Positions 10,750-33,304 of a DNA stretch of 64,000 bases are shown one piece after another (position 1 is the stretch's first letter; every line of letters begins with the position of its first letter). This DNA comes from Chitinophaga pinensis (GTDB taxonomy: Bacteria > Bacteroidota > Bacteroidia > 2-12-FULL-35-15): the NCBI GenBank assembly GCA_945879015.1, contig CAMCUO010000005.1, forward strand, positions 1,306 through 65,305. Reading direction: 5' to 3'. The notes under the pieces are model-generated. The model saw only the letters and a program-made list of their open reading frames with translations. It did not search any database and was not told where the DNA came from. The position numbers and the translations under genes were made by a program.

Positions 10750-10827
10750 TTTTGTATTATTAGGTCGTGATGAAACTCCTTTTGGAGAAAACAATTTTAG
10801 TAATTGATATATTAAATTTTTCATAAA

Positions 10828-13251: not shown

Positions 13252-13440
13252 AAATTCTTTAAATTTTGCTCAAAAATAAGCTAAAAATGATGCTAAAAAG
13301 CAGATTTTAATGTGTGTTGAAAAGTAATCCTGCGTTTTTTTTTAACACATGCAACTTTTGGGCATAATTGTACATCTGCTATGTATATTTCAATATAATT
13401 AGTAAATTAGTCGGATAATAAAATCAAAAAAAATTTTAAA

Positions 13441-13851
13441 ATGAAAAAACTTATCTATTCTCTTGTAATTACATTTTTAATGGGATTATCGGTAAACACA
13501 TTCGCTCAAAAAGCAGTTGCTACTATGGCATATTTGAATGTTAAAACTTCTAAAAAAGTTGTAGATGATAAAACTGCAATTGTTAGCTTTCAGTTAAATA
13601 ACATTTCAGATGAAGCTACATTAGCAAAATATAAGAAAGCATTTTCTTCTCAACAAAGAATTCAGTCAGTAACTACTTCTTTGCAAAAAGGAAATATGGC
13701 TTCTTTTTATATTAAAATGGACAAAACAGCAACACTAGAAACTTTACAAAGATTATTCGTTAAGGCACATGTTGCATCAGTAAATGTTGATGGCAAAGTT
13801 GCAGCTACTAAAGATCTTTCTAAATTAAAACAAAAATCTGCTAAAAAATAA
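13441..13851 (+). CDS. Small secreted hypothetical protein.
   Basis: 136 aa with signal peptide MKKLIYSLVITFLMGLSVNTFAQ; Lys-rich; no recognisable domain. Confidence 0.45.
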   Translation: MKKLIYSLVITFLMGLSVNTFAQKAVATMAYLNVKTSKKVVDDKTAIVSFQLNNISDEATLAKYKKAFSSQQRIQSVTTSLQKGNMASFYIKMDKTATLETLQRLFVKAHVASVNVDGKVAATKDLSKLKQKSAKK

Positions 13852-13871
13852 TATTTTTTCATACTTATAAA

Positions 13872-14999: not shown

Positions 15000-15014
15000 A
15001 TTATACTTAATTAT

Positions 15015-15045
15015 AACGTCACACTGAGCGGAGTCCAAGTGCGTT
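15015..15045. repeat. Short dispersed motif cgtcacactgagcggagtcCaagtgcg (GAGTCGAAG family).
   Basis: Near-identical to 3625-3652. Related copies at 2624-2650, 37201-37230 and 54955-54975. Confidence 0.4.
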
Positions 15046-15052
15046 ATCTTTA

Positions 15053-16096: not shown

Positions 16097-16268
16097 TTAA
16101 TAGCTCAGCCTATGTTTTAAGCATTCAATATACAAAGTAATACTTAGGAAAATCTAAAATAGACAAATTATCCCTCTGCTTTTTCAAGGAGAGGGAAGGC
16201 TGAGGTTTTAAAAGGGCTATTTTTGATTTTCACCTAGTATAAAAGTAACAATTATTCGTTTATTTGAG

Positions 16269-16276
16269 TATTTTTG
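16269..16276 (+). promoter_or_regulatory. Candidate Bacteroidota sigma-A -7 box (TAttTTTG) for the dlt-like operon.
   Basis: TATTTTTG sits 35 bp upstream of the ATG at 16311. It is preceded by the hairpin tccctct-N12-agaggga at 16171-16196. Confidence 0.25.
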
Positions 16277-16310
16277 AGATATTTGTATAGTATGGTAATG
16301 GGCATAAATT

Positions 16311-18854: not shown

Positions 18855-18888
18855 TATATTTGTTTGTCAAACTTAAAATATAAAAAAC

Positions 18889-19152
18889 ATGCGTGCAGAC
18901 ATTAACGAAATAAAAGAAACAGTAAAGGCGTTCGTTAATAAACGTTTTTTAAAAAATGCTGAAGGGAAAGAATTAAACTATTCAACTCCTCTCATTTCTG
19001 GTGGTATTATTGATTCGATACTTGCTATGCAGTTGGTTGTTTTCCTAGAACAAACCTACAGGTTTGAATTTCAAGCACACGAAGTTGATAAAGATAATTT
19101 AGATAACATCGATATCATTGCAGGGTTTGTTGTAAAGAAGTTGAATGCATAA
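18889..19152 (+). CDS. D-alanyl-carrier-protein-like (DltC-like) small carrier protein.
   Basis: 87 aa. GGIIDSILAMQLVVFLEQ has the phosphopantetheine Ser in a DltC-like context. Its stop overlaps the next start (ATGCATAA). Confidence 0.75.
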   Translation: MRADINEIKETVKAFVNKRFLKNAEGKELNYSTPLISGGIIDSILAMQLVVFLEQTYRFEFQAHEVDKDNLDNIDIIAGFVVKKLNA

Positions 19153-20599
19153 GGTAAATAAGCTATATCAGCTTCTTGAAAATTCGGCAGAACAGTTTCC
19201 GGATAATACTGCTTTAGTTTTGCAAGAAAAAAAGATTAGCTATCAACAATTAGATTCATTAGCTAATAAAATAAAACAAGCTCTTCATTCTATAAACATT
19301 TCTGAAGGAAATCGTATCGCTATTTGCTCTCCTAAATCCATTGAATTTGTCGCCTCTATTTTCGGAATATTAAAAGCTGGTGCTGCTTATGTTCCTGTTG
19401 ATTATAATTCACCTATTGAACGCAATAATTTTATTATTGAAAATTGTGAAGTAGCTGCAATTATTATTACTAAAGACTTGTTAGAAAATTTTAAAAATAA
19501 TTTTACGTTTTTCGCAGATATTGGAATTGATTTAGTTTTAGCAAAAAGCAATAAGGTAACATTAAAAAAATCTTCTGAAGATTTATCCTATATTCTATAT
19601 ACTTCAGGCTCAACGGGAAATCCAAAGGGTGTAATTTATACCAATGCTGGAGCACTTGAATTTATCAATTGGAGTTCAAATACTTTTTCTCCCACTTCGA
19701 GTGATTGTTTTTCGTCGCATGCGCCTTTTCATTTCGATCTTTCTATTTTTGATTTATATGTTTCTATAAAGCATGGAGCAACTTTGGTTCTGATAAAAGA
19801 AGAAGTGGCGAAACAACCTATGCTATTGGCTCAATTAATTTCAGAACAAAAAATTAGTATTTGGTATTCTACTCCTTCAATTCTAATAATGCTTTCGGAA
19901 TATGGCAAAATGGAAAAGTATAAGTATGATAGTTTGAGATTGATATTATTTGCTGGTGAAGTTTTCCCAATTGTCAAATTAAATACATTAAAGAAAAAAG
20001 TTAAAACATCGGTTTTTTATAATCTTTATGGACCAACAGAAACAAATGTTTGTACGTATTATCAATTGCCTGAAAATATTGAAACAAATATTCCGATTGG
20101 AAAAGTATGCGAACATTATCAAGCCTGTGTTGTTGGTGATGAGCTTTTAATTAGCGGAAAAGGTGTGATGTTGGGTTATTGGAATGTTCCTGAAAAAGAT
20201 AATTTTTGGAAGGACCAAGAAAATAGATTTTGGTACAAAACGGGTGATTTGGTAGATGTTGCAGAGAGTGGAGATTATATCTTTAAAGGCAGAAGAGATA
20301 GAATGGTGAAGCGCAATGGTTATAGAATAGAATTGGATGAAATAGAAACAGGATTAAGTAAACATCCCGATATTGTTATTGCGGCTGTTGTCAGTAAGAA
20401 CAATGAAGAAGAGCAAATGATTATTTCTGCCTTTGTTGTTTTAAGAAATACTGAGCAAAAATCAGTCATAAAAATGAAGGAATATTGTATGAATCACTTA
20501 CCTTCGTATATGGTTCCCAACGACTTTATTTTTGTTGAGGATTTGCCACAAACATCAAGCAATAAAGTGGATTATCAGAAATTAAAACAATTAGCCTAA
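19145..20599 (+). CDS. Stand-alone adenylation enzyme (ANL superfamily), DltA-like aminoacyl-carrier-protein ligase.
   Basis: Motifs: YTSGSTGNPKGV (A3), FHFDLSIFDLY (A4; Asp rather than Glu after the pocket, as in DltA), YGPTE (A5), YKTGD (A7), GRRDRMVKRNGYRIELDEIE (A8), NKVD (A10). About 484 aa; no C or T domain. Confidence 0.8.
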   Translation: MHKVNKLYQLLENSAEQFPDNTALVLQEKKISYQQLDSLANKIKQALHSINISEGNRIAICSPKSIEFVASIFGILKAGAAYVPVDYNSPIERNNFIIENCEVAAIIITKDLLENFKNNFTFFADIGIDLVLAKSNKVTLKKSSEDLSYILYTSGSTGNPKGVIYTNAGALEFINWSSNTFSPTSSDCFSSHAPFHFDLSIFDLYVSIKHGATLVLIKEEVAKQPMLLAQLISEQKISIWYSTPSILIMLSEYGKMEKYKYDSLRLILFAGEVFPIVKLNTLKKKVKTSVFYNLYGPTETNVCTYYQLPENIETNIPIGKVCEHYQACVVGDELLISGKGVMLGYWNVPEKDNFWKDQENRFWYKTGDLVDVAESGDYIFKGRRDRMVKRNGYRIELDEIETGLSKHPDIVIAAVVSKNNEEEQMIISAFVVLRNTEQKSVIKMKEYCMNHLPSYMVPNDFIFVEDLPQTSSNKVDYQKLKQLA

Positions 20600-21747
20600 T
20601 GGAACTTTCCTTATCAACAGAGCAAATGCTTATCCAGGAAAACATTATTGGTTTTGCTCAAAAAGAATTGAATAATAATATTATTGAGCGCGATAAAAAC
20701 CAGCAGTTTTTACCTGAATTATGGAAAAAATGTGCGGAACAAAAACTTACTGGATTACCTGTTGAGGAAAAATTTGGTGGTGCTGGTTTAGATCCTATTT
20801 CTTCTGTTTTAGCATTGGAAGCATTGGGTTATGGCTCCGATGACGGTGGTTTGAATTTTTCTATATGTGCACATTTATTGGCTTGTGTTGTTCCTATCTG
20901 GAAATACGGAAACGAAAATCAAAAGAAAAAATACTTGCCTGATTTATGTAATGGAAAAAAAATTGCTGTAAATGCAATGACAGAAAGCGAATCGGGTTCG
21001 GATGTTTTTAATATTAAAACAACTGCTAAAAAGCAGGATAATGGATTTGTGATAAACGGAACAAAAACGTTTTGTTCAAATGGTCCAGTTGGAGATATAA
21101 TTTTAGTTTATGCGCTTACTGATGAAAGCAAAGGGTATTATGGTGGAATTACAGCTTTCATTGTAGATAAAAATGCAAAAGGATTTAAAGTCGGTCAGAA
21201 ATATGAGAAAATGGGTTTGCGCAGTTCGGGTATTTCTGAAGTAATATTTGAAAATGTTTTTGTTTCAGAAGAAGATATGGTTGGAGGATTTGGTGGTGGA
21301 GCAACGGTGTTTAATCATTCGATGGAGTGGGAGCGAACTGGTATGGCAGCTTTGCATGTTGGAACCATGCGCAAGTTGCTTGAAAAATCAATTGATTATG
21401 TTCAAACACGCAAATCAGGAAATGAAGTAATCGGTAAAAAACAAGCTATCGCTCATCGCATTGCAAATATGAAAGTTCAATTGGAAGCAGCTTCTTTGCT
21501 TACTTATAAAGCTGCATTAGGATTAGAAAAAAATAAAGAGAACATGATTCATGCAGCTTCAGCTAAACTTTTTGTGAGTGAAGCATTTGTTGCTGCTGCG
21601 ATTGATACCATGCAACTTTTTGGTGGAAATGGTTATATGACAGAATACGGTATTGAAAGAATTGTGCGAGATGCTCTTGGAAGTACTGTTTATTCTGGCA
21701 CATCCGATATTCAACGTAACATCATTTCTCGTTTGCTTGGATTGTAA
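20599..21747 (+). CDS. Acyl-CoA dehydrogenase-fold flavoprotein, atypical (candidate acyl-carrier-protein dehydrogenase).
   Basis: 382 aa ACAD fold. The C-terminal signature reads RDALGSTVYSGTSDIQRNIISR; the catalytic Glu of the canonical YEGT is replaced by Ser. Start overlaps the adenylase stop (TAATG). Confidence 0.8.
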   Translation: MELSLSTEQMLIQENIIGFAQKELNNNIIERDKNQQFLPELWKKCAEQKLTGLPVEEKFGGAGLDPISSVLALEALGYGSDDGGLNFSICAHLLACVVPIWKYGNENQKKKYLPDLCNGKKIAVNAMTESESGSDVFNIKTTAKKQDNGFVINGTKTFCSNGPVGDIILVYALTDESKGYYGGITAFIVDKNAKGFKVGQKYEKMGLRSSGISEVIFENVFVSEEDMVGGFGGGATVFNHSMEWERTGMAALHVGTMRKLLEKSIDYVQTRKSGNEVIGKKQAIAHRIANMKVQLEAASLLTYKAALGLEKNKENMIHAASAKLFVSEAFVAAAIDTMQLFGGNGYMTEYGIERIVRDALGSTVYSGTSDIQRNIISRLLGL

Positions 21748-21790
21748 AATATTTAGTATTTTAGCGCTAGTTCTCGATACTACTAAATTT

Positions 21791-23179
21791 ATGAAACTAT
21801 ACGATGTCATCATTATTGGCGGGGGGCCAACAGGTTCAACTGCTGCGACACTTTTAGCTCAAAAAGGGTTAAGTGTTTTGTTGTTAGAAAAAGAATCCTT
21901 CCCAAGAGAACATGTTGGTGAATCATTGATTCCGATTTCTTATGATCAATTGAATAAGTTGGGATTGGTTGAAGAAATGAAAAAAATTTCTAGTCGTAAA
22001 CCTGGAGTTAGTTTTGATGCAAATGATGGTGTGAACCGATCTTTATGGTGTTTTAAAAGTGTTATTAAAGATGAATCATATTTAGCTTTTCATGTTATCC
22101 GTTCGGCATTTGATAAGCTTTTGTTGGATAATAGTAAAAAAGTGGGAGCTGAAGTGAGAGAGCAATACATGGTGAAAAATGTAATTCTTGATAGAGCAGA
22201 TAAAATAGTAGAAGTGCATGCAACAAATGCAGAAGGCAAAGAAGAAAAATTTGAATCCAAATTTATTGTTGACGCAAGTGGACTAAGTACTTTTCTAGGA
22301 AGAAAATTGGGAGTTAAAAAAGCATATGCGGGTTTAGATAGAGTGGCTACTTGGTCGCACTGGACAAACACCGAATTTGATACAAATTTAAAAGAAGGCG
22401 TTATTAAAATTGTTTATTTGGGTGGAGAGAAAAAAGGATGGATATGGGTTATTCCTGTGAGCAAAGAGCATTTGAGCATTGGTGTGGTTGTGAATAACAG
22501 TCATGTGAAAGAAAAGAAAAAGCAATTTCAAGATTCAGAAGATTGGAAAAAAGATTATTATTTGCAGGAACTACAAGAATGTTATTTGTATAAAACGGTA
22601 TTGAAAAACGCTAAGATGGAGCATAAAGTTGCCATGGCTGGTGACTACTCTTATTACTGCGAAAAAAAGTATGGTGAAAATTATGCTTTAGTTGGAGATG
22701 CTGGTGCATTTTTAGATCCTATTTTTTCAAGCGGAATTTTTGTTGGAATGAAGAGTGCTGAATTGGTAGCGGATGGTATTGAAGCGAACCTGAAAGGAAA
22801 AGGGAATGCTGAAATGGACAAAGCTTATGTTAATATCAATGGTGCTGTCAACTTACTTGAAAAATTTATTCGCTTGTTTTATACTCCTGAAGCACTTGAT
22901 TTTTCTAAGATTGGAACTCCAGAAGGACTTTTAATGTTTAAAAAATACGAACAAACATATTCCGTTTTCCATTACTTATTAGCGGGTGATTTTTTCAATA
23001 ATTATGAAAAGTACAGTGAATTTATTGATACCATACGTGATGAGAAGACTATGGCCAAATTCGAAAATTTAATTGATCACGCGCACAGCGCCTTACCTAA
23101 AAGTTGCGGAGAAGATTTTGAAGAAATGTATGGTGAAATGACGCATAAAATTGAGTTTGATCATAAGGCGTTTGAGTAA
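21791..23179 (+). CDS. Flavin-dependent halogenase (PltA/PrnC-like clade).
   Basis: GxGxxG IIIGGGPTGSTAA; FPREHVGESLIP; WxWxIP as GWIWVIPV (22436-22459); FxxPxxSxG as FLDPIFSSGI. The ORF-track N-terminal extension from 21653 overlaps the ACAD gene and is rejected. Confidence 0.75.
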   Translation: MKLYDVIIIGGGPTGSTAATLLAQKGLSVLLLEKESFPREHVGESLIPISYDQLNKLGLVEEMKKISSRKPGVSFDANDGVNRSLWCFKSVIKDESYLAFHVIRSAFDKLLLDNSKKVGAEVREQYMVKNVILDRADKIVEVHATNAEGKEEKFESKFIVDASGLSTFLGRKLGVKKAYAGLDRVATWSHWTNTEFDTNLKEGVIKIVYLGGEKKGWIWVIPVSKEHLSIGVVVNNSHVKEKKKQFQDSEDWKKDYYLQELQECYLYKTVLKNAKMEHKVAMAGDYSYYCEKKYGENYALVGDAGAFLDPIFSSGIFVGMKSAELVADGIEANLKGKGNAEMDKAYVNINGAVNLLEKFIRLFYTPEALDFSKIGTPEGLLMFKKYEQTYSVFHYLLAGDFFNNYEKYSEFIDTIRDEKTMAKFENLIDHAHSALPKSCGEDFEEMYGEMTHKIEFDHKAFE

Positions 23180-23201
23180 ATAGCATTGTGCACCCATTCG
23201 T

Positions 23202-23325
23202 GAGAGATTGCCACATCCCGCGAAAATGCGGGACTCGCAATGACGCTCTGTTATGTGGTTATCGCTTTTAGAACGTCATTGCGAGGCACGACCCGAGCAT
23301 TCGGGGCGGGATGTGGCAATCTCTC
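23202..23325. repeat. About 125 bp composite palindromic element, same family as 7764-7893 but in R-spacer-L order.
   Basis: gagagattgccacatcccgcgaaaatgcgggactcgcaatgacgctct, then a 23 bp spacer, then acgtcattgcgaggcacgacccgagcattcggggcgggatgtggcaatctctc. Confidence 0.7.
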
Positions 23326-23349
23326 CAATATTGCGAAGACCAGTCACCC

Positions 23350-24063
23350 TCAAAAAAACCAAGCACTAACATTCATCACAATCTTCCTTCCCCAAGAAGG
23401 AACATGTTTTAAAAAATAAAAATTCTGAAATTTTAATTGCCACCAAAGTGTTGCATTTACTTTAGCACAAATTTGTTTTTTGTCATTTTCAAATTCTTCA
23501 CGTAAAATATCAATAATCAAAATCCACCGTTCATTTTCTGTTTTGTTCCATACTTCATGTTCGTATGCATCACAGAAGGCAAAGAGTTTTCCATTTTTCC
23601 ATGAAATTTGCTCATTTCCAACTCTCATTCCAATTTCCGGTAAGCTATTTTTGCAGTTTAAAGTAAAGTGACATCGATACATCACATTGCTATCACCATG
23701 ATGTGGTTTTATGGAAGTATTTGCATTTAAAATGGAAAACGAAGCATGTGTCATTGCTGGAATGCTTTCGATTATTCTTGTCGTCTCCGGACATTTTTCA
23801 CAATTTTCTTTTTTCTTTTTGCTCCAAACATACAATGGAAAAATAGTCCAGTTCTCTGCTTTGCTGGCAAGTGATTTATTCATGTAAGGAATAATATTTT
23901 TATCCTTTGATTCAACAAGTTTGGTGAATTCTTTTAAAATTAAATCGTAATTGTCTTCAAAAAGAGCCACCCATTTTTTGTCATGGATATCAAAAAAATT
24001 AGGCTCTGGGCCTTTGTAAGCGCTATTCTCTGCAAACGAATACCATTTCTTTGAATTTCCCAT
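23350..24063 (-). CDS. Aspartyl/asparaginyl beta-hydroxylase-family 2OG/Fe(II) oxygenase, paralog 1.
   Basis: 237 aa. HHGDSNVMYRCHFTL, WKNGKLFAFCDAYEHEVWN, ILIIDI; matches the AspH core (H..R.H..L / FDDSFEHE.WN). Confidence 0.65.
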   Translation of the reverse strand: MGNSKKWYSFAENSAYKGPEPNFFDIHDKKWVALFEDNYDLILKEFTKLVESKDKNIIPYMNKSLASKAENWTIFPLYVWSKKKKENCEKCPETTRIIESIPAMTHASFSILNANTSIKPHHGDSNVMYRCHFTLNCKNSLPEIGMRVGNEQISWKNGKLFAFCDAYEHEVWNKTENERWILIIDILREEFENDKKQICAKVNATLWWQLKFQNFYFLKHVPSWGRKIVMNVSAWFF

Positions 24064-24806
24064 TAGTAAACTTTAAATAGATTAACACTTACTATAGCCA
24101 GTCGTGTAAATGGATGTAAACATTTTGCTAAAAACTTAATTGTTCTAGCAGATAATTTTTTAAGAAAAGTATATTTCTGCCATCTCTTTTGTAAAAAAAG
24201 CGAAGTCATTACTGTTGCGCAAATTTTTTCTTTTTCATTTTTAAATTCATCACGCACAACATCCACCACAAAAATAAAACGATCTTTCTCCGAATTATTA
24301 TACGCTTCATGTTGATAGGCATCCATAAACATCAACCATTTCCCATTTTTCCATGGACGAACTTCCTCTTTAACTTTAAAGGCACATTCTGGAAGTCCAG
24401 CCGGAATTTCCAGTCCTAAATGACATCTATAAATAGTATTTGTATCTCCGCAATGTGGATGAATTTTACTTTTTGCTTCTAATAAATTAAAAGAGGAAGA
24501 AGTAATTTCTGGATATTTTTGAATAATGGAATAAGTTATTGGAAAATATTTCTGATTTTTAAACTGTTGAATTCCCCATGTTCTCAGTGGAATTGTTTTC
24601 CAGCTATTTTCACGCGAAACCATTGATTTTATAAAATAACCAATGAGGTTGTCGCTTTTAAGATATTCTTTGAGTTCTTTATAAATGGCTTCGTAATTTT
24701 CTTCAAACTCTTTTGTCCAGCGAAATTCTTCTGGTTTAGTAAAAGGAGCTTCCGTTCCATGATATTCGTCATTTACGTTATATATGTTGTACCAAGCCTT
24801 TTGCAT
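24063..24806 (-). CDS. Aspartyl/asparaginyl beta-hydroxylase-family oxygenase, paralog 2.
   Basis: 247 aa. HPHCGDTNTIYRCHLGL, WKNGKWLMFMDAYQHEAYN, FIFVVDV. Its stop overlaps paralog 1's start. Confidence 0.65.
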   Translation of the reverse strand: MQKAWYNIYNVNDEYHGTEAPFTKPEEFRWTKEFEENYEAIYKELKEYLKSDNLIGYFIKSMVSRENSWKTIPLRTWGIQQFKNQKYFPITYSIIQKYPEITSSSFNLLEAKSKIHPHCGDTNTIYRCHLGLEIPAGLPECAFKVKEEVRPWKNGKWLMFMDAYQHEAYNNSEKDRFIFVVDVVRDEFKNEKEKICATVMTSLFLQKRWQKYTFLKKLSARTIKFLAKCLHPFTRLAIVSVNLFKVY

Positions 24807-24850
24807 CCACTCTTTATTTATTATATTTGTTTTAGTAAAAACTCTAGCAA

Positions 24851-25537
24851 ATGTCTGAATTCGAATTTACAAATAAAAATCCTAAGTTCTTTTATGATTC
24901 TGCTCAGTTTCCTTTTTTGAAGCCATTGCTTGATAATGTTGGGGTTATTCGAAAAGAGTTGCAAGATATTATTGCTTCAGGAAAGGAAAATCAATGGATG
25001 AATACGTTTCCACATTATGTAAAATCTGACGAGCACAAAGCTTGGAAGGTATTTTCATTTTTGTTCTTTAATATGAAGCTTCCCAACAACGCAAAATTAT
25101 GTCCGAAAACGGCTGAACTCATTTATTCTATTACAGAGATTCTTTCTTGTGATTATTCTTATATGAATCCAGGAACTCATGTGCTGCCTCACAAAGGTTA
25201 TTCACGAATGGTTTTACGTTGTCACATTGCTTTGATTGTTCCAGATGAGGAACTTTGTGCTTTACGTGTTGGAAATGAAATTAAACATTGGAAAGAAGGC
25301 GAACTTATAATTTTTGATGATTCATTTGAACATGAAGCATGGAATAGATCCGACAAAAGAAGAGTTGTTTTAATGTTTGATATTCCAAATCCCCTTTGGG
25401 GATATACTGCTCATGAAATTTCAAAATATAAAATTGATAAAATTGATGATCCTTTTCTTTTATCGATGGCTCCCAAAGATGAATGGATAAAAGCGTTTGA
25501 AAAAGGAATTTTTCCTTTGGAGAGTTTTAAAGATTAA
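24851..25537 (+). CDS. Aspartyl/asparaginyl beta-hydroxylase-family oxygenase, paralog 3 (most canonical).
   Basis: 228 aa. LPHKGYSRMVLRCHIALIVP, WKEGELIIFDDSFEHEAWNRSDKRRVVLMFDI. Near-textbook AspH C-terminal core. Confidence 0.7.
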   Translation: MSEFEFTNKNPKFFYDSAQFPFLKPLLDNVGVIRKELQDIIASGKENQWMNTFPHYVKSDEHKAWKVFSFLFFNMKLPNNAKLCPKTAELIYSITEILSCDYSYMNPGTHVLPHKGYSRMVLRCHIALIVPDEELCALRVGNEIKHWKEGELIIFDDSFEHEAWNRSDKRRVVLMFDIPNPLWGYTAHEISKYKIDKIDDPFLLSMAPKDEWIKAFEKGIFPLESFKD

Positions 25538-25602
25538 ATTTTGGTTGAGAATTGTTATATAGTCAATTGATTAAAGGTATTCTCAGCTTAAATGGTTCTG
25601 AC

Positions 25603-26526
25603 TTATTTCTTCTTCACAAAAACTTTCTTCACCAAACCAACCGCTTTCTCAACAACTAAACCTACAATAATTCCAGCAAGGACACAGGATAGTGCTTTTA
25701 TAAACCAGGCCAAAGCAGACATGTTAGCCAAAGTGTGTTCGAGATCGTGAATTAAATTGGCAGAAAATTCAAAGCCGTGAGCAATGATTTCTGCACCCAC
25801 CCAAAGCATGGCTGCGGTACCCACATAACTCAAAATTTTTAGGAAATGCGGCATGAACCTGACAAGACCAAGTCCGAATTTTTGCAGGACAGGATGAAAT
25901 TTATCCTTGGCTAAGTGAAGTCCTATGTCGTCTGCTTTAACAATCAATCCAACAAATCCGTAGACTGCAATAGTAATAAAAACACCAACAGCCAGCATCA
26001 CCAAAATCTGCTTCATCATTGGCTGGTCGGTGACATAACTATAAGCAATGGCAATAATTTCTGCGGAGAGAATAATGTCAGTGCGAACCGCACCTGTAAT
26101 CCTTTCTTTTTCCAATTCATCTGGCGTGATGACTTTTACTTCATCCATTGTTAGAGGCAGATCAGGATGTTTGCTAAACATTGAATGCAACTTTTCGTAC
26201 CCTTCGAAACATAAATAAGCTCCACCTAACATTAAAATTGGTGTGATTGCCCAAGGAGCTAAGTACCCGAGCAACAAAGCTGCAGGAGTTAAAATAAGAA
26301 GTTTATTTATGAGAGATCGTTTGGCAATCCTGTAAATGATAGTTAGTTCACGTGATGGATCGAGTCCAACAACGTACTTTGGCGTAACGGCTGTATCGTC
26401 AATGACAATGCCCGAAACCTTCCCGCTAGTTTTGATTACCTGTGCAGGTACATCACTCAAGTTGGCTGCAGTTGTTTTTACTAAAGCTGAAATATCATCT
26501 AAAAGTGCAAAAAAACCCGAAGCCAT
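25603..26526 (-). CDS. DUF808 (YedI-like) inner-membrane protein.
   Basis: MASGFFALLDDISALVKTTAA and PWAITPILMLGGAYLCFEGYEKL match the E. coli YedI family. Confidence 0.7.
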   Translation of the reverse strand: MASGFFALLDDISALVKTTAANLSDVPAQVIKTSGKVSGIVIDDTAVTPKYVVGLDPSRELTIIYRIAKRSLINKLLILTPAALLLGYLAPWAITPILMLGGAYLCFEGYEKLHSMFSKHPDLPLTMDEVKVITPDELEKERITGAVRTDIILSAEIIAIAYSYVTDQPMMKQILVMLAVGVFITIAVYGFVGLIVKADDIGLHLAKDKFHPVLQKFGLGLVRFMPHFLKILSYVGTAAMLWVGAEIIAHGFEFSANLIHDLEHTLANMSALAWFIKALSCVLAGIIVGLVVEKAVGLVKKVFVKKK

Positions 26527-26584
26527 ATGCTATAATTTTGCTAATGTGTACATATTGAAATCGATGCAGGTGATTTTTTTCGAT

Positions 26585-27196
26585 TTAGAGCAAAGCATTT
26601 ATCGCCTCCATATTCTCATCACAAACTTCACCGCTAAATTTTAATTCCGCATTTTGATCGCTCAAAATTGCAGCAGCTTTATTTAGTTTTGCACCAATTG
26701 TTTTGTAGTCATCCACGTGCAATTCGTATAATTGATTGTCCACATGCTCTTGATCTGACAGTAATTTGTAGCCAAGTAACTTGTTGTAATGAATGGCTCT
26801 ATCATTGTCGCTCAATATTCTGATACGAGAAATTTTGCTGACATTTAATTTTAAAAACATAAAATTCAAAAGACACAATGTTGCAAAAACGGCTGCAAAG
26901 GAGCTGATGTAGTCTTTGTCACTAATAAAAATTCCTCCTTCGCCAAATCCTAAGCCTACATCATAATTTTTTGCATTGATGAGTCCAACTTGTTTGCCTT
27001 CAAATTCAATAATAAAATAATAATTGTTTCTGTTGTTTACGGATTTGAACCAAATTTTTTGAGCTTCAGGTGTAATGAAATTACGGTATTCCATGTAATT
27101 AGCAATATCACTTTGGTTTCTCCAATTACGAACCATCTCAATATCTTTTTCTTGCACTCTTACAAGCCGAACGCCATATTGTTCAAGAACTAACAT
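26585..27196 (-). CDS. GNAT-family N-acyltransferase (RimJ/RimL-like).
   Basis: 203 aa. Lies at the 3' end of the KASIII operon; its start overlaps the GT2 stop. Confidence 0.55.
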   Translation of the reverse strand: MLVLEQYGVRLVRVQEKDIEMVRNWRNQSDIANYMEYRNFITPEAQKIWFKSVNNRNNYYFIIEFEGKQVGLINAKNYDVGLGFGEGGIFISDKDYISSFAAVFATLCLLNFMFLKLNVSKISRIRILSDNDRAIHYNKLLGYKLLSDQEHVDNQLYELHVDDYKTIGAKLNKAAAILSDQNAELKFSGEVCDENMEAINALL

Positions 27197-28107
27197 ATGA
27201 TTTCGTCTTCGTTATAGGAAGGCGCATTGTTCAAAGCTTTTAACATCTGACTTATATATTGTGCGACAATTCCAATGCAGAAAATAATTATACCTGTAGA
27301 AAAAAGAATACTTACAATCAAAGAAGTATAACCTTCCACATCAATTTTTAAGTAAAACTTTTTAATGATGTAAAAAATTCCAATAATGAAATTGATAGTA
27401 GCTAAACTAAATCCAATATAGGTTACCAATTTTAATGGTAGAGTAGATGAAAACATGATGATGGTAGAAGTCATCTTAAACAATCCTGCTACTTTGTAAC
27501 GTTGCTTATGTATGTAATCAGGATTTGCATTTACATCTACAAAGGCTAATTTTTTTGTGTACCATAAACACAATTCATCAATAAAAACAAATTGTTTGTG
27601 ATTGTGTACCAACTTATCAGTCAGTGATTTTTTTAATAATCTAAAACTGCTTCCTTTTCCTTTTTGTGGGCCTTCCAGCTTTGCTAGTATTTTATATGCT
27701 CCAGAAAAAATTCCTCTAAAAAAAGGTTGATTTTGTTTTGGATACAATCCATAAACCAGATCAGCATTTGTATTTTTTTGATTATCGATTAGCTTTTGAA
27801 TTTCTGAAGGGTGAACTTCTAAATCATCATCAATGGTAATAACAAAATCTCCTTTCGCATGTTTGAAGCCACAAACAGTAGCTCCGTGCTGACCGAAATT
27901 TTTACTTAAGCGAATAATGGTTGTGTTGGATGAACTTGCTTTTATTTTTTTTAATACTTCCCAGCTATTGTCGGTACTACAATCATCCACAAAAATAATT
28001 TCGTAGGAATATTTGTTTTCAAAAAATGAAACAATGCTTTGGTGCACCTTCTCAAGTGCATTTTCAGAACCATAAACTGGAATAACTATGCTATAGTTTG
28101 TGCTCAT
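27190..28107 (-). CDS. Family-2 glycosyltransferase, polyprenyl-phosphate sugar synthase type (ArnC/GtrB/DPM1-like).
   Basis: SIVIPVYGSENALEKV...YEIIFVDDCSTDNS (DxD). Two C-terminal TM helices; about 305 aa, the ArnC architecture. Confidence 0.75.
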   Translation of the reverse strand: MSTNYSIVIPVYGSENALEKVHQSIVSFFENKYSYEIIFVDDCSTDNSWEVLKKIKASSSNTTIIRLSKNFGQHGATVCGFKHAKGDFVITIDDDLEVHPSEIQKLIDNQKNTNADLVYGLYPKQNQPFFRGIFSGAYKILAKLEGPQKGKGSSFRLLKKSLTDKLVHNHKQFVFIDELCLWYTKKLAFVDVNANPDYIHKQRYKVAGLFKMTSTIIMFSSTLPLKLVTYIGFSLATINFIIGIFYIIKKFYLKIDVEGYTSLIVSILFSTGIIIFCIGIVAQYISQMLKALNNAPSYNEDEIIC

Positions 28108-28847
28108 ATTTTACTATTTAAAAGTAATCCACCATCCATTTTTATAACTGTTCCAGTAATTCTTTTTGATGCGGCACTTAATAAAAACGCAGCAGTATTT
28201 GCAACATCAATTGGTTCACTTATTCCAAGTGGGTAACGACTTTCAATTTCTGCAAATTCTTCTTTTGAATAAATTTGCTCTGCTTGTTCCAAAATTTTTG
28301 TCCGAACCAGACCAGGAGCAATGGTGTTTACTCGTATTTTTTTAGAAGCTGTTTCCAAAGCCAATCCTAAAGCAAAAGACTCTAATGCAGCTTTTGATGC
28401 AGTATAAAGCGAACCTCCCGTGTATGGATGATTTGCAGAAATGGATGAAATGAAAACAACTGATGCTTCGTTATTTAATTTTTTTGCAGATAATAATCCA
28501 CTACTCAGCAATACAGCCGATGAAAAATTTATTTTAAAAAGTTCATCAATGTGTCTTGATTTTAAAAACTTTATTGGAAGTGGATTGATAATTCCAGCAC
28601 AATGAACGAAACCATCAATAGCAGGTATTTTAGAAATCAAATAATTAATTTCCTCTTCGTTTGACAAATCAGCAATAAAAAAGCCTGCTTTATTTTTTAA
28701 TAATGCTTTTGTTTTATTTAATTCATCAGCATTGCGACCAGTGATAATGATATTAGCACCCAAAGAATCACACAATTGCGCAGTTGCTCTTCCTATTCCA
28801 GAAGTAGCACCAGTCACCAAAATTGTTTTATTCTCAAGCTCTGTCAT
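28104..28847 (-). CDS. SDR-family 3-oxoacyl-ACP reductase (FabG-like).
   Basis: TGATSGIGRATA Rossmann motif; YTASKAAL catalytic YxxxK. Confidence 0.8.
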   Translation of the reverse strand: MTELENKTILVTGATSGIGRATAQLCDSLGANIIITGRNADELNKTKALLKNKAGFFIADLSNEEEINYLISKIPAIDGFVHCAGIINPLPIKFLKSRHIDELFKINFSSAVLLSSGLLSAKKLNNEASVVFISSISANHPYTGGSLYTASKAALESFALGLALETASKKIRVNTIAPGLVRTKILEQAEQIYSKEEFAEIESRYPLGISEPIDVANTAAFLLSAASKRITGTVIKMDGGLLLNSKI

Positions 28848-29892
28848 ATTCTAAAAGTTTTGTATAAACATTTTCGGTTTCTAAAATAACACTTCCCCAG
28901 GAATATCCAACTCCGAAACCACTCAATAACAAAGATAATTTTTTTGTTCGTAATGCTTCTTTCATTTTGTAGCACATGGTTAATGGAATAGAAGCGGAGC
29001 TAGTGTTCCCAAAAACATCTATAGAATAAGGCACTTTTTCAAGATCTATTTTTAATTTTTTTCTCACACTTTCGTTGATGAGCTTGTTGGCTTGATGCAT
29101 AACGAAGTAATCTGTATTCTCTTTTGATTTATTACTTTTTTCATAAAGTGTAGTAATATTTGAAGCCGCTTCTTTCAATGCAAAATTAAAAACATCCATT
29201 CCATTTAAAATCAAATGCTTTTTTGCTCTACTAATTCCTGGTTCAATTTCTACTAAATCTTCCAATGTTTTATCAAACGGTGTTCTGCAACTTCCATGTT
29301 CAATTATGATTGCATTTTTTCCGGAGCCATCGCTTTGTAAATTAAAATGCATTTCATTTTTAGTTTGTGAATGCTCTATCAATGTTGCGGTTCCTGCATC
29401 TCCAAAAAGTGGATAAGTGCTTTTATCGGTATATGTTGTAGATGTAGATGACTTATCTCCAACTATCAATAAGCCTTTTTTTAATTGTCCGCTTTGCATT
29501 AAGTTGGTGATTACCGACAATCCATAAACATATCCAGAACAACCTAAGCTGATATCAAATGCGATACAATCTTTTTTTAATCCTAAACGGTTTTGTAATA
29601 AAATGGAAGTCGCTGGTAAAATATAATCGGGTGACTGAGAAACAAAAATCAGGACATCAATTTCTTCAGCACAATTATATTTATCTAATAAATGTTTAGC
29701 TGCTGTAAAACATAAATCGGAGCAAGCAACATCTTTAGCGGCAACTCTTCTTTCTTTTATTCCAGTAGTTTTTGCAAATAATTCTCTTTCCTCAACTGAA
29801 ATATGATTGTAATCGGCAGTTTTTTCTATGTGAGTTGGCACACAGCTGGAGATTGCAATAATATTCGTTTTAGTAGTAGATAGATAGGCCAC
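28834..29892 (-). CDS. 3-oxoacyl-ACP synthase III (FabH-like), copy A.
   Basis: Cys-His-Asn triad: SLGCSGYVYGL, MHQANKLI, FGNTSSASIP. Confidence 0.8.
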   Translation of the reverse strand: MAYLSTTKTNIIAISSCVPTHIEKTADYNHISVEERELFAKTTGIKERRVAAKDVACSDLCFTAAKHLLDKYNCAEEIDVLIFVSQSPDYILPATSILLQNRLGLKKDCIAFDISLGCSGYVYGLSVITNLMQSGQLKKGLLIVGDKSSTSTTYTDKSTYPLFGDAGTATLIEHSQTKNEMHFNLQSDGSGKNAIIIEHGSCRTPFDKTLEDLVEIEPGISRAKKHLILNGMDVFNFALKEAASNITTLYEKSNKSKENTDYFVMHQANKLINESVRKKLKIDLEKVPYSIDVFGNTSSASIPLTMCYKMKEALRTKKLSLLLSGFGVGYSWGSVILETENVYTKLLEYDRA

Positions 29893-30129
29893 TTATTTTA
29901 ATTTTTCGATAGTAATATTATAAAGATCTTGGATTGTTTGTGCCGATTTTAAATCAGCGCCATTTAATAATGCATTAAAATTCGCATCAATGTATGCAAT
30001 GATAATTAAGGCATGCATACTGCTCCAACCTTTTATACTTCTAAAGTTTGTAGCGGAGCTAAGAGTCCCAGGTTCTAAATCTTCAAATTCAACTTCTAAA
30101 CCTTTCGTAAATTCTTCTATGCTATTCAT
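29893..30129 (-). CDS. Acyl carrier protein (dedicated).
   Basis: 78 aa acidic. KGWSSMHALIII has the Ser attachment site. Sits between the two KASIII genes. Confidence 0.6.
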   Translation of the reverse strand: MNSIEEFTKGLEVEFEDLEPGTLSSATNFRSIKGWSSMHALIIIAYIDANFNALLNGADLKSAQTIQDLYNITIEKLK

Positions 30130-30165
30130 AAATGTAAATATATTAAAATATACAATTCAAGATGA

Positions 30166-31179
30166 CTATAGCTCAATAATGGTTGCACCCCAAGACAAAC
30201 CGACTCCAAATCCTGCGAGTAATATTTTTTGTCCTGGTTTTGCTTTTCCTGATTTAATGGCTTCACTTAATGTAATGGGGATGCTTGCAGCAACTGTGTT
30301 TCCAACACCTGCCATGTAATTAAAAACTTTTTCCTCCGGAATTTTCATTTTTGTTCGTATGGAATTAATCAAAAATAAATTCGCTTGATGAAAAATAAAA
30401 AGATCAACGTCTTCGATATTTAATTTTTCTTTCGCCAATAAATCTTTAATCATTGCTGGAACAGTTTTTAATCCAAAATGAAAAACTCCAGCACCGTCCA
30501 TGTGTAAATTAGCATCGGTAGTCACATTTCCGTGTTCATTTTCTATTTCAATAAAAGAATTTTTTGAAATTGGATTTCTTGCACCACCATCTCTGATGAT
30601 AATTTTTTCTGCCATTTTTCCATCTGTTCCAAAAACGAATGAACTAATGTTAGCATTTTTTTTACCAGACGAAATGAGCGTTGCAGCTGCACCATCACCA
30701 AAAACAAATTTTGAACTTCTATCTTTTTTATGAATATTTTTTGTGAGTGTTGAAGAAGTAATTAGCAAAACATTTTTCAATCCCAAAGACTCAATCATTC
30801 CTTTTGCCATCCCTAATCCATATACAAATCCGCTACAACCTAAACTGTAATCCATTGCTCCAGCATTTATTGGAAGCCCTAATTTTGCTTGTATGATAGA
30901 GGCAGAGGCAGGAAACATGTAATCAAACTCCAAAGCACAAAAAAGTAAAAAATCAATTTCTTCAGGTTTAACTTTGTGTTCTTTGAAAAGTGCTAATGCT
31001 GCTTTAACAGCAAGATCAGAAGCTGTTTCATTTTTAGCTACTATATGCCTTTCAACAACTCCAATTCTTGCATAGTTTTCTTTTTGAGAAACAGTTGCAG
31101 GAAAAGCTTTGAAAAAATCTGTATTACTATAGATTTTTTCGGGAAGATAATAACTGATAGCTTTTATGAATGCCGACAT
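30166..31179 (-). CDS. 3-oxoacyl-ACP synthase III (FabH-like), copy B.
   Basis: SLGCSGFVYGL, FIFHQANLFL, AGVGNTVAASIP. Confidence 0.8.
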   Translation of the reverse strand: MSAFIKAISYYLPEKIYSNTDFFKAFPATVSQKENYARIGVVERHIVAKNETASDLAVKAALALFKEHKVKPEEIDFLLFCALEFDYMFPASASIIQAKLGLPINAGAMDYSLGCSGFVYGLGMAKGMIESLGLKNVLLITSSTLTKNIHKKDRSSKFVFGDGAAATLISSGKKNANISSFVFGTDGKMAEKIIIRDGGARNPISKNSFIEIENEHGNVTTDANLHMDGAGVFHFGLKTVPAMIKDLLAKEKLNIEDVDLFIFHQANLFLINSIRTKMKIPEEKVFNYMAGVGNTVAASIPITLSEAIKSGKAKPGQKILLAGFGVGLSWGATIIEL

Positions 31180-31279
31180 CTTTGTAAAATGAATAGAAAA
31201 TATTTAAAAAGTGTTTATGACAATTTTCGAATTAAAAGTACAAAAATACTTTCTCATCTTGGGAAAAACTTAATTATAT

Positions 31280-33304
31280 TTGGTGGGTAAAGAATTGTAT
31301 AGAATTTCAATGAAAAAGAACAAAGTAAAGGAAGCCCCTAAGCCTGAAAAAAAGATTGTTGAAAACGTGTTCAGTGAAAAAAAATTGAATCGTAGAATAA
31401 TTTTATTTTTTGTGCTTTTATGTTTTTTGGTTTACGGGAAAAGTATCAAGAATAATTATTCTATGGATGATGAGTTTGTTGTTAGAAATAACCAACAAGT
31501 TCAAAGAGGAATTGAAGCAATACCTGAAATTTTTAGAACAACCTATGTTGTAAATAGTCAAAAATCGAACTACGAATATCGTCCAATTGTTAAAGCATCA
31601 TTTGCGTTAGAGTGTGAGTTTTTTGGAGTAAATCCACATGTTAGTCATTTCATAAATGTGTTGCTTTATACTTTAGCGATAGTATTGCTTTACATGACTC
31701 TCAAGGCTTTACTGTCGAAATACAATATACTTCTTCCTTTTATAATTACGACTTTATTTTTGATTCATCCATTGCATTCCGAAGTTGTAATAAGCATTAA
31801 AAATAGAGATGTTATTTTAAGTTTTACAGGATTTATTCTTTCCATATTCTTTTATTTAAAATTCATTGAAACAAAAAAATATTATCACTTATTTTTCGGA
31901 GTATTTTTTATTCTTTTTGGATTGATGTCTAAAAAAGATGCGATGACCATTGTTGCTATTATTCCCTTTACTCTTTGGTTTTTAAAAGATGTTTCTTTCA
32001 AACGAATGATTCCAATTTTTATTTCTTACATATTTCCAATTCTCATTTATCGATTTGCAAACAAAATTGCGAATCATAATTTTTCGAGAAAAACATTGGA
32101 TTGGGAAAATCCTTTATATCTGGGTTCAACTTTAGCGGATCGTATTCCGAGCGGATTTTATAGCATTTATTTTTATCTAAAAATGTTTTTAATTCCGCAT
32201 CCGCTTGTTTCCTACTATGGCTACAATCAAGTGCCTATAGCTACTTGGTCGAATGCAATTGTATGGATTGTTTTAATCGGATTAATAGGCGTAGGTTATT
32301 ATGTAATTAAAAATTTCAAAACAAAAGGAATTGAAATTTTTGGAATTCTATTCTTTTTAGTAACCATTTCAATGTTTACAAATGTGTTGGTTCCAGTTGT
32401 AGGTATTGTAGGTGAGCGATTTGCATTTATTCCATCACTAGGATTGTGTTTTATATCAGCTTGGGCTTTGTTTAAAGGTTTTAAAATTGCTTTTGAAAAC
32501 AAAGAATTGAAATTTCCAGCACTTTCAAGTCCGATTTTCGTGACTTTAGGTTTAGTTGTTTTGCTATTTAGTATCCGTTCATTTGTTAGAATAAAAGATT
32601 GGAAGGATACATTTACTTTGTATCAAACAGATGTTAAAAATGCTCCAGAATCGGCTCATGCCAACTCATTGATAGCAGCAGCATCCATTCAAAAGATTAA
32701 GGAAAATGAAAAAATGAGCATAAATCAGAAACGATTTTATGTTCAAAATGCGGAAAAATACTATTTAGAATCCATTCGCATTATTCCAGACTACATCTCT
32801 TCCTTAAACAATTTGGGAATGATTTATTACACCTATTACAATCAGCCTGAAAAGTCGATTCCCTATCTTAAAAAGGCAATATCATTAGATACAAATTATG
32901 TGGAAGCATACTTTAACTTAGCGACTTGTGAAGCAAAGGGGAAAAACTATGTTGAAGCAGAAAAACATTACCTGAAATCAATAGAAATTGACTCCAATTT
33001 TGTGAGCACTTATTTTTCATTAAGCGCCATGTATGCGGAAGAAAAGAAGTATGATGAAATTTTAAAATTGAATCAAAATGCTATAGATAAAGGGGTTAAG
33101 GCAGATGTATTGCATGTGAATATTGGTAATGTTTATTTCATGAGAAAGGATACAATTTCTGCAGTACCGCATTTTGAAGAATGCATACGTTTGAACTCAA
33201 ATAACAGGTTTTTGAACTCGTTTTTGGCCAATTATTTCAAAGAAAAGGGTGATTTAGTGAAAGCGAACAAATATTATGACTTGATGGGGGCTTCAAAACG
33301 TTAA
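31280..33304 (+). CDS. GT-C fold membrane glycosyltransferase (ArnT/PMT family-like) with a C-terminal TPR domain.
   Basis: About 11 N-terminal TM helices. C-terminal TPRs: YFNLATCEAKGKNYVEAEKHYLKSIEIDSNF, YFSLSAMYAEEKKYDEILK. Divergent from the KASIII/GT2 operon. Confidence 0.65.
   Translation: MVGKELYRISMKKNKVKEAPKPEKKIVENVFSEKKLNRRIILFFVLLCFLVYGKSIKNNYSMDDEFVVRNNQQVQRGIEAIPEIFRTTYVVNSQKSNYEYRPIVKASFALECEFFGVNPHVSHFINVLLYTLAIVLLYMTLKALLSKYNILLPFIITTLFLIHPLHSEVVISIKNRDVILSFTGFILSIFFYLKFIETKKYYHLFFGVFFILFGLMSKKDAMTIVAIIPFTLWFLKDVSFKRMIPIFISYIFPILIYRFANKIANHNFSRKTLDWENPLYLGSTLADRIPSGFYSIYFYLKMFLIPHPLVSYYGYNQVPIATWSNAIVWIVLIGLIGVGYYVIKNFKTKGIEIFGILFFLVTISMFTNVLVPVVGIVGERFAFIPSLGLCFISAWALFKGFKIAFENKELKFPALSSPIFVTLGLVVLLFSIRSFVRIKDWKDTFTLYQTDVKNAPESAHANSLIAAASIQKIKENEKMSINQKRFYVQNAEKYYLESIRIIPDYISSLNNLGMIYYTYYNQPEKSIPYLKKAISLDTNYVEAYFNLATCEAKGKNYVEAEKHYLKSIEIDSNFVSTYFSLSAMYAEEKKYDEILKLNQNAIDKGVKADVLHVNIGNVYFMRKDTISAVPHFEECIRLNSNNRFLNSFLANYFKEKGDLVKANKYYDLMGASKR

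Follow-up and report, generated by a model that had tools for sequence, protein, structure and literature searches.

The window (the whole stretch of 64,000 nucleotides that was analysed, positions 1,306 to 65,305 of contig CAMCUO010000005.1, assembly GCA_945879015.1, Chitinophaga pinensis) is AT-rich (~33% GC) and identical in sequence to ENA and Logan metagenomic contigs. In it, six minus-strand genes encode two KASIII-type ketosynthases (KAS1 and KAS2), a predicted acyl carrier protein (ACP), a ketoreductase of the short-chain dehydrogenase/reductase (SDR) family, a family 2 glycosyltransferase (GT2) and an N-acyltransferase of the GNAT family. A divergent plus-strand gene encodes a GT-C-like glycosyltransferase with C-terminal tetratricopeptide repeats (TPR). 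We propose, with a probability of about 0.5, that these genes belong to an envelope-modification island of ~19 kb (13872-33304) devoted to making a tailored amino sugar, N-acylated and linked to a lipid, which the GT-C protein would transfer outside the cytoplasm. This proposal draws on the gene content, folds, catalytic motifs and conserved synteny of the island, and on a fusion of GT2 to GNAT in one of the related loci. The operon and its divergent neighbour are composed as follows.

26585-27196, minus strand: GNAT N-acyltransferase, 203 aa (PF13302)
27190-28107, minus strand: GT2 of the GtrB/ArnC/DPMS polyprenyl-phosphate type, 305 aa (PF00535)
28104-28847, minus strand: SDR ketoreductase, FabG-like, 247 aa (PF13561, PF00106, KR domain)
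28834-29892, minus strand: KAS2, second KASIII-type ketosynthase, 352 aa (PF08545 and PF08541)
29893-30129, minus strand: predicted dedicated ACP, 78 aa (orthologue profile against PDB)
30166-31179, minus strand: KAS1, KASIII-type ketosynthase, 337 aa, first gene of the operon (PF08545 and PF08541)
31180-31309, no strand: divergent intergenic region between KAS1 and the GT-C gene, 130 bp (sequence read directly)
31310-33304, plus strand: TMTC/PMT-like GT-C protein with C-terminal TPR, 664 aa (AlphaFold2 fold, motifs, TPR Pfam matches)

The six-gene operon and its conservation

The first-pass annotation had described six minus-strand genes with overlapping boundaries, and both coordinates and overlaps were confirmed. 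All seven open reading frames (ORFs; six on the minus strand and one on the plus strand) were found where it had placed them, and from GNAT to KAS1 the junctions are overlaps of 7, 4 and 14 nt, a junction of 0 nt and a gap of 36 nt. The stop codon of GT2 and the start codon of GNAT overlap in ATGTTAG, as read base by base in the window only, and ORF coordinates give the same 7-nt overlap in 8/10 distant loci examined.

A search with aligned GNAT homologues yielded 80 loci among the GTDB species representatives, and all window proteins were mapped onto these loci. Counts are given as loci with a feature over loci with enough flank, and operon order was counted where at least 5 kb lay upstream of the GNAT gene (n=57). 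The relatives are all metagenome-assembled genomes (MAGs) labelled Bacteroidia or Bacteroidota. The results show that GT2 stands directly before GNAT in 56/57 loci and that the full collinear order KAS1-ACP-KAS2-SDR-GT2-GNAT is kept in 33/57 loci; the six-gene arrangement is far above chance expectation. The most constant partner of the GT2-GNAT pair is a convergent PF05118 dioxygenase gene, Hyd3 (67/73 loci). No other gene of the island is as well conserved as Hyd3, whose identity has a median of 64% over 72 loci. At least one further PF05118 paralogue (Hyd1 or Hyd2) is found in 30/53 loci, sulfotransferases flank the cluster in 26/53, the GT-C/TPR gene is present in 26/47, and a module of membrane-bound O-acyltransferase (MBOAT), carrier protein, adenylation enzyme, acyl-CoA dehydrogenase-like enzyme (ACAD) and halogenase in 11-16/55. 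Loci of the Crocinitomicaceae type hold just GT2, GNAT and Hyd3, amid unrelated housekeeping genes, among them gldB/gldC and genes for a TonB-dependent receptor and a DEAD-box helicase. Since this minimal unit lacks KAS and ACP genes, GT2-GNAT, with or without Hyd3, is the core of the system and the acyl cassette an accessory.

The Pfam and NCBIfam results agree with the identities given earlier to the ketoreductase, the GT2 and the GNAT. By alignment, the GT2 is a full-length enzyme of the GtrB/ArnC polyprenyl-phosphate type, as the first-pass annotation had supposed: residues 4-298 align with GtrB (5EKP, 1.2e-33) and residues 5-303 with ArnC structures, and the alignment covers the two hydrophobic helices at the C-terminus. 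The motifs DDCSTD (41-46) and DDD (93-95) are present. The ArnC equivalog model NF007986 gave 118.8 bits against a cut-off of 529, and by this test the GT2 is not an ArnC orthologue.

The GNAT protein passed the gathering score of PF13302 (32.5 vs 25.4 bits) and missed the cut-off of the PseH model TIGR03585 (51 vs 93.1 bits). Its matches in the PDB are to SpeG and, weakly, to the sugar N-acyltransferase FdhC (5KTA, 0.0018), whose activity we take to be that of a 3-hydroxybutanoyl-sugar N-acyltransferase. The weak likeness to PseH and FdhC, both sugar N-acyltransferases, would favour N-acylation of a sugar. Close homologues number more than 300, all in Bacteroidia, and species-level genomes yielded 159 relatives. 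In place of the pyrophosphate-binding loop Q-x-x-G-x-A of SpeG, the family has an invariant Y-I-x-S-F-A-A, and the usual Q/R-x-x-G-x-G/A loop is absent; such an altered loop may be compatible with an acyl-ACP donor. A C-terminal extension of ~40 conserved residues also marks the family and is missing in its Bacteroidales homologues.

Two intact FabH-type ketosynthases had been claimed, and this holds: both proteins carry the N- and C-terminal ACP_syn_III domains (PF08545, PF08541) and complete catalytic triads (C115/H264/N294 in KAS1 and C118/H266/N296 in KAS2), and they share 37% identity. Both pass the broad KASIII model NF006829 (278.7 bits for KAS1 and 253.6 for KAS2; cut-off 249) and miss the fabH equivalog cut-off of TIGR00747 (257.8 and 233.2 bits; cut-off 292.1). 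In addition, the KAS genes accompany the cluster, and relatives with just GT2-GNAT do not have them. These two findings argue that the ketosynthases are not housekeeping fabH orthologues, a possibility that the first-pass annotation had named as fatal to its reading. The closest PDB structures are 3GWA for KAS1 (5e-79) and 4EFI for KAS2 (5e-61), which are labelled there merely as 3-oxoacyl-ACP synthases, and both proteins have an insertion of ~16 residues relative to E. coli FabH. At what we take to be the equivalent of the primer-pocket residue F87 of E. coli FabH (numbering approximate), KAS1 has Phe and KAS2 has Leu, which would be compatible with distinct primers for the two enzymes.

The ORF of 78 aa that always lies between the two KAS genes had been called a private ACP. 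Pfam and NCBIfam are silent on it, even at E = 10, but a profile of 19 orthologues matches 49 PDB chains that are nearly all ACPs (best 2LML, 4e-6). The invariant Ser37 of W-S-S37-M aligns with the phosphopantetheine serine, the WDSL motif of 2LML lying opposite WSSM; the protein would be an atypical ACP with WSSM in place of DSL. An hhalign comparison with E. coli AcpP aligned the full length at E = 3.7e-4, with a probability of 36%. The SDR carries TGATSGIG (12-19; TGxxxGIG) and YTASK (148-152; YxxxK) and scores 126-133 bits with FabG models, under their equivalog cut-offs. Neither a dehydratase nor an enoyl reductase is part of the cassette, and no fabD, fabZ, fabF or fabI was found near it in the ORF list of the window. 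Because dehydratase and enoyl reductase are missing, the product is predicted to be a short 3-hydroxy or 3,5-dihydroxy acyl-ACP.

The GT-C/TPR protein, the probable tailoring genes and the predicted pathway

The divergent protein had been described as an ArnT/PMT-like GT-C/TPR protein of 674 aa. The GT-C fold holds, but the protein is probably 664 aa long and resembles TMTC rather than ArnT. The start is most likely the ATG at 31310 (664 aa) and not the TTG at 31280, as it is also called on the identical public contigs. TPR Pfam matches cover residues 507-640. For the N-terminal ~450 residues, Pfam and NCBIfam gave no match even at E = 10 (including PMT_2, PF13231, and DUF1736, PF08409), and phmmer against the PDB returned TPR matches only; some homologues of 35-80% identity do carry PF13231 or PF08409. 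AlphaFold2 models had a pLDDT of 86 and, for the N-domain, 83. The top 31 Foldseek matches of the N-domain model in the PDB are all GT-C enzymes (STT3, Pmt4, PglB, Pmt1/2, Emb, ArnT), and their TM-scores, normalised to the length of the query, span 0.33-0.50. The residues D53-D54 (just past the first transmembrane segment), Y90-R91-P92 and E369-R370 do not vary among 32 homologues, and they map to the motifs M1, M2 and M7 (DD, SHKSYRP, ERxxY) defined for TMTC O-mannosyltransferases (PMC7801869). The model thus assigns the divergent protein a TMTC/PMT-like GT-C fold, and the invariant D53-D54 speaks against the concern, raised in the first-pass annotation, that a periplasmic catalytic Asp motif might be lacking.

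The remainder of the island lies on the other side of the operon and consists of the following genes, together with one apparent insertion.

13872-14999, plus strand: ST1 sulfotransferase (PF13469 and PF00685 for ST1 and ST2)
15053-16096, minus strand: ST2 sulfotransferase (PF13469 and PF00685, as for ST1)
16311-18854, plus strand: MBOAT-SGNH-like membrane protein, 847 aa (from homologue names and a motif seen by eye)
18889-19152, plus strand: carrier protein, 87 aa (GGIIDS motif)
19145-20599, plus strand: proline-type adenylation enzyme (PDB matches)
20599-21747, plus strand: prolyl-carrier-protein dehydrogenase, ACAD (PDB matches)
21791-23179, plus strand: carrier-dependent FAD halogenase (PDB matches)
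23350-24063, minus strand: Hyd1 (PF05118; Hyd1 and Hyd2 at 7.5e-43 and 1.5e-39)
24063-24806, minus strand: Hyd2 (PF05118, as for Hyd1)
24851-25537, plus strand: Hyd3, dioxygenase of the Asp/Asn beta-hydroxylase family (AspH/LpxO-like), 228 aa (PF05118, 2e-43)
25603-26526, minus strand: DUF808 membrane protein (DUF808 assignment)

Hyd1, Hyd2 and Hyd3 share 28-38% pairwise identity. The PF05118 proteins keep the histidines of PHxG and (F/Y)(E/Q)HE, which in Hyd3 read PHKG (113-116) and FEHE (159-162). The first-pass annotation had seen in an envelope acceptor a plausible target of these hydroxylases and the sulfotransferases. None of them has a signal peptide or a transmembrane segment, which makes tailoring of a cytoplasmic precursor the likelier course. 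LpxO and OlsC are acyl 2-hydroxylases, and by analogy with them the AspH/LpxO-like hydroxylases, as well as the sulfotransferases, probably act on a cytoplasmic precursor.

In the proposed pathway, a first condensation by KAS1, of malonyl-ACP with a small acyl-CoA primer, would take place on the private ACP, and the SDR would reduce the 3-keto group; KAS2 would then add a second C2 unit, and a second reduction by the SDR would give the short 3-hydroxy or 3,5-dihydroxy acyl-ACP. The GNAT would move this acyl group onto the free amine of an amino sugar, either sugar nucleotide- or lipid-linked, and the GtrB/ArnC-type GT2 would load the sugar onto polyprenyl phosphate at the cytoplasmic face. The cytoplasmic dioxygenases and sulfotransferases would hydroxylate and sulfate the precursor and, after flipping, the TMTC-like GT-C/TPR protein would transfer the sugar to an acceptor in the periplasm or at the surface. 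We infer all of the substrates, the chain length, the acceptor and the order of acylation, lipid loading and tailoring from the gene families; the TPR domain of the GT-C protein makes a protein acceptor plausible.

The idea of an N-acyl amino sugar, already put forward in the first-pass annotation, gains real support from variant loci in Bacteroidales. In locus L083 (a Bacteroidales MAG, 9281-10525), a GT2 catalytic domain is fused to GNAT in one protein of 414 aa, a PIG-L de-N-acetylase gene adjoins it, and ACP-KAS-KAS follow. Locus L079 (a Paludibacteraceae MAG, Bacteroidales, 7203-13950) encodes GT2, GNAT, ACP, SDR, KAS, two small EamA proteins (122 and 110 aa), a DegT aminotransferase and a 4,6-dehydratase, and L076 (Bacteroidales) has a layout resembling it. 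These DegT operons and the fusion beside PIG-L would place the acyl group on an amino sugar. A rearranged island in L074 (a Weeksellaceae-labelled MAG, 10617-18883) includes a sugar nucleotidyltransferase, a 4,6-dehydratase, a UbiA-family prenyltransferase, extra divergent PF05118 genes and three ORFs with no Pfam match. Locus L082 (Bacteroidales) has the order GT2, GNAT, ACP, KAS, SDR, KAS, SDR, and its neighbours, a DsbD-like protein and an FkbM methyltransferase, are no evidence of a sugar pathway.

The five-gene module between the sulfotransferases and the hydroxylases had been taken for a Dlt-like system. Its enzymes point elsewhere: the four best PDB matches of the ACAD are all prolyl-carrier-protein dehydrogenases (AnaB 4IRN at 3.4e-95, 6CXT_B, which we take to be Bmp3, 5ZW0 and 6AF6), and the best stand-alone match of the adenylation enzyme is the L-proline ligase 6O6E, presumably PltF. 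The halogenase groups with PltA and ChlB4, so named in the PDB, and with 3E1T, 5BUK, 5BUL and 5BVA, which we presume to be the carrier-dependent halogenases CndH, Mpy16 and Bmp2. DltABCD D-alanylation was rejected, as DltA models gave 284-298 bits, under cut-offs of 476-560, and the ACAD and halogenase beside it resemble enzymes that act on prolyl or pyrrolyl carriers. The homologues of the 847-aa protein are named DltB or AlgI (MBOAT) by JGI and SGNH hydrolase by NCBI, and its WRR...WIMH resembles, by eye, the MBOAT motif; Pfam and NCBIfam gave no match to it even at E = 10, and phmmer found no PDB match for the MBOAT-like domain. Judged by these matches, the module looks like a route from proline through a halopyrrolyl-S-carrier to an MBOAT-SGNH acyltransferase, a proline-to-halopyrrolyl system present in only the 11-16 loci counted above. 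No description of a halopyrrole carrier coupled to an MBOAT was found in the literature searched. A code of DLFYLALVCK was derived by hand from the motif positions of the adenylation domain; it is unverified and had no literature match. The loci L060 (13496-20192) and L027 (17919-20269) are without the 847-aa protein and have a canonical PF03062 MBOAT (467 aa) beside sulfotransferases; L060 additionally encodes a Wzx-type flippase.

A reading that covers the whole island, which we hold to be tentative and on balance unlikely, would make it a surface-decoration system of Bacteroidia. An amino sugar on polyprenyl phosphate, with a polyketide-like polyhydroxy acyl amide, hydroxylated further by three dioxygenases and sulfated, would be put on envelope proteins by the TMTC-like enzyme and then esterified outside by the MBOAT-SGNH protein with a halopyrrole-2-carboxyl group from the proline-loaded carrier protein, the final step being a Dlt-style export of halopyrrole.

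Known systems and competing explanations

Each part of the island comes from a known family, and the whole combines the three-component logic of Arn/Gtr-type systems with an acyl cassette of the wfp type. In Flavobacterium psychrophilum, wfpC (KAS), wfpD (ACP), wfpE (KAS), wfpF (ketoreductase, KR) and wfpG (acyltransferase) are predicted to make a 3,5-dihydroxyhexanoyl amide on Qui2NAc4N; the order KAS-ACP-KAS-KR-N-acyltransferase is common to both systems, and neither has a dehydratase or an enoyl reductase (PMC6519341). The two differ in that WfpG is PglD-like, whereas the acyltransferase here is a GNAT, and in that the wfp genes are set within a Wzx/Wzy O-antigen locus with pglE/pglF, whereas the cassette here is joined to a polyprenyl-phosphate GT2, a TMTC-like GT-C protein, hydroxylases and sulfotransferases. 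The comparison is one of gene order and description and not of sequence orthology, and the wfp function is itself a prediction.

In the Arn pathway (ArnB, ArnA, ArnC, ArnD, ArnE/F, ArnT) and kindred systems for lipid A amino sugars, an ArnC-type GT2 loads an N-acylated 4-amino sugar onto undecaprenyl phosphate; the product is then flipped, and a GT-C enzyme transfers the sugar. The island follows the same logic, and L079 resembles the Arn layout with an ACP-borne acyl group replacing formyl. It differs from Arn in using an acyl group from a private ACP and not formyl, in having no ArnD-like deformylase, and in its TMTC-like GT-C protein with TPR. The window is without equivalents of ArnB or ArnE/F, whereas L079 holds the full set except for the GT-C protein. 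Systems of a GtrB-type GT2, a flippase and a GT-C enzyme, described as modifying glycans, teichoic acids or Ser/Thr-rich proteins, likewise pair a polyprenyl-phosphate GT2 with an extracytoplasmic GT-C enzyme (abstracts of PMC11127046, PMC12041528 and PMC7389260). Unlike these, the island has no GtrA-type flippase, and its donor is apparently acylated and tailored, which the abstracts do not describe.

The eukaryotic O-mannosyltransferases TMTC1-4 share with the divergent protein a multi-transmembrane GT-C domain followed by a non-cytoplasmic TPR domain, and DD, YRP and ER(xxY) are kept; the pilin arabinosyltransferase TfpW of P. aeruginosa was compared alongside them as a GT-C/TPR enzyme. The window protein differs from the TMTC proteins in falling under the PMT_2/DUF1736 thresholds, and its donor is probably not mannose. 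In the Nod factor pathway (NodE/NodF, NodA, NodC, NodB, NodH), a ketosynthase and its private ACP provide a special acyl chain that becomes the N-acyl group of an amino sugar, and a sulfotransferase then sulfates this sugar. NodC, however, makes chitin oligomers processively, NodA does not belong to the GNATs and the product is secreted, not lipid-linked; the likeness is one of logic only, and no homology is claimed. Two comparisons suggested by the first-pass annotation fell away. The defining genes of aryl-polyene/flexirubin or DarB dialkylresorcinol clusters (a KASI/II-CLF pair, dehydratases, DarA/DarB and an ammonia-lyase) are not among the ORFs at 13-34 kb, where the DarB model scores 25-49 bits against a cut-off of 550. 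As for ornithine/glycine-lipid synthesis, no OlsB/GlsB- or OlsA-type domains were found, and only the PF05118 proteins are OlsC/LpxO-like.

Several findings weigh against the proposed pathway. GT-C neighbours drop to ~30% identity where the other cluster genes remain at 55-65% (medians 32% vs 53-64%), and 21/47 loci have no GT-C gene within reach. The nearest solved relatives of the GNAT are polyamine acetyltransferases (SpeG), the match to FdhC being weak. The Crocinitomicaceae units, without KAS and ACP, make the special acyl chain an add-on and not part of the core. In the window and the main-type loci, tblastn for an aminotransferase, a 4,6-dehydratase, a PIG-L deacetylase and small EamA flippases returned nothing relevant, and there is no sugar-nucleotide gene; the supply of amino sugar must therefore be encoded elsewhere.

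The weakness of the GT-C link, which is statistical (26/47 loci), leads to an alternative that we consider unlikely: the operon would make an acylated polyprenyl-phosphate sugar, the GT-C gene would be merely a frequent neighbour, and the donor would be used elsewhere (on lipid A, the lipopolysaccharide core or O-antigen, as with ArnT, FlmK and Gtr). The low identity of the GT-C protein fits this explanation, as do the plentiful GT-C/TPR paralogues in Bacteroidia genomes (649 matches) and the position of the gene on the opposite side of the cluster in L044 and L052. A divergent or adjacent GT-C/TPR gene nevertheless recurs over deeply diverged loci, with tandem pairs in L015, L020 and L021, and a polyprenyl-phosphate GT2 needs a GT-C partner, of which there is no other nearby. 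It is rather improbable that the end product is instead a glycolipid or a secreted, sulfated N-acyl sugar or lipoamino compound resembling a Nod factor, with the GT2 glycosylating a lipid or small molecule directly. The private ACP and KAS, the hydroxylases, the sulfotransferases and the halogenase do give the island the look of a natural-product cluster, the GNAT is SpeG-like and the window lacks a flippase; the GT2, however, matches the polyprenyl-phosphate family GtrB/ArnC over its full length, including the C-terminal helices, and relatives of the cluster stand in Arn-like or polysaccharide-locus contexts, with a Wzx-type flippase and MBOATs in the variants.

Two further explanations concern the acyl cassette. 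The KASIII pair might serve as an acyl shuttle that takes the halopyrrolyl group off the carrier of 87 aa and passes it, by way of the 78-aa ACP, to the sugar. ChlB3, ChlB2 and ChlB6 of chlorothricin synthesis are reportedly KASIII-like acyl shuttles with such a KAS-ACP-KAS logic, with which the gene order here agrees, and the pyrrolyl-carrier module lies ~8 kb away and has a halogenase that matches ChlB4. We regard such a shuttle as highly improbable, since both triads are Cys-His-Asn with a ketoreductase directly next to them, the PDB matches at or below 1e-10 are dominated by true FabH and do not include known KASIII-type acyltransferases, and the cassette mostly occurs without the pyrrole module (33 vs 11-16 loci), also in Bacteroidales polysaccharide loci. 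That the KAS, ACP and SDR genes are ordinary fatty-acid genes lying beside glycosylation genes by chance has almost no likelihood: the pass of both KAS with NF006829 would allow it, but the failed fabH equivalog test, the WSSM of the ACP, the lack of fabD, fabZ, fabF and fabI nearby, and the collinearity of the set with GT2-GNAT in 33 genomes, together with its loss in relatives that keep GT2-GNAT, all oppose it.

We found, in the literature searched, no description of the strict GT2-GNAT coupling (including the fusion), of an association with a TMTC-like GT-C protein, multiple AspH/LpxO-like dioxygenases and sulfotransferases, or of an optional halopyrrole-MBOAT module. If the proposed pathway for a lipid-linked N-acyl amino sugar is true, it would be a widespread envelope glycoconjugate pathway in Bacteroidia lineages known from metagenomes alone, joining acyl building of the type II fatty acid synthesis kind, Arn/Gtr-type lipid-linked transfer, hydroxylation and sulfation. 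It would offer a testable function for the TMTC-like GT-C/TPR proteins of bacteria, of which Bacteroidota have many and for which no functional assignment was found in the literature searched, and also for cytoplasmic dioxygenases of the AspH/LpxO family. It would further be a second, independent genomic case of the KAS-ACP-KAS-KR route to polyhydroxy N-acyl sugars that has been proposed for fish-pathogen O-antigens, and the halopyrrole-MBOAT module would be a new use of Dlt-type machinery and of pyrrole halogenation.

The divergent intergenic region and the surroundings of the island

In the intergenic region between KAS1 and the GT-C gene, TAnnTTTG-like boxes were spotted, by eye only, at 31275-31282 on the plus strand and 31248-31241 on the minus strand. 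A scan for sigma-70 promoters and terminators was uninformative (42 found vs 37.8 expected), Bacteroidetes promoters being outside the coverage of the tool.

The DUF808 gene between GNAT and Hyd3 is confined to the window and the loci closest to it (L001-L003 and L011); it is apparently an insertion into the cluster and not a member of it. A secreted ORF of 136 aa (13441-13851) was considered as a substrate protein and dropped, as it has no counterpart beside the cluster in other loci. Genes of L013 (15170-18710) that encode an imelysin, a DUF4856 protein and an HTTM/vitamin-K-carboxylase-like protein are separated from the cluster by a few kb and probably have nothing to do with it.

Beyond the island, an S12-S7-EF-G-S10 ribosomal operon begins at 33640, 336 bp past the GT-C gene, as judged from ORF sizes and the Pfam annotation of the identical public contig. 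Towards the start of the window, gldF/gldG-like and dnaN-like genes (within 2773-7702) and an integrase-like ORF of 452 aa (1191-2549) were recognised by eye only.

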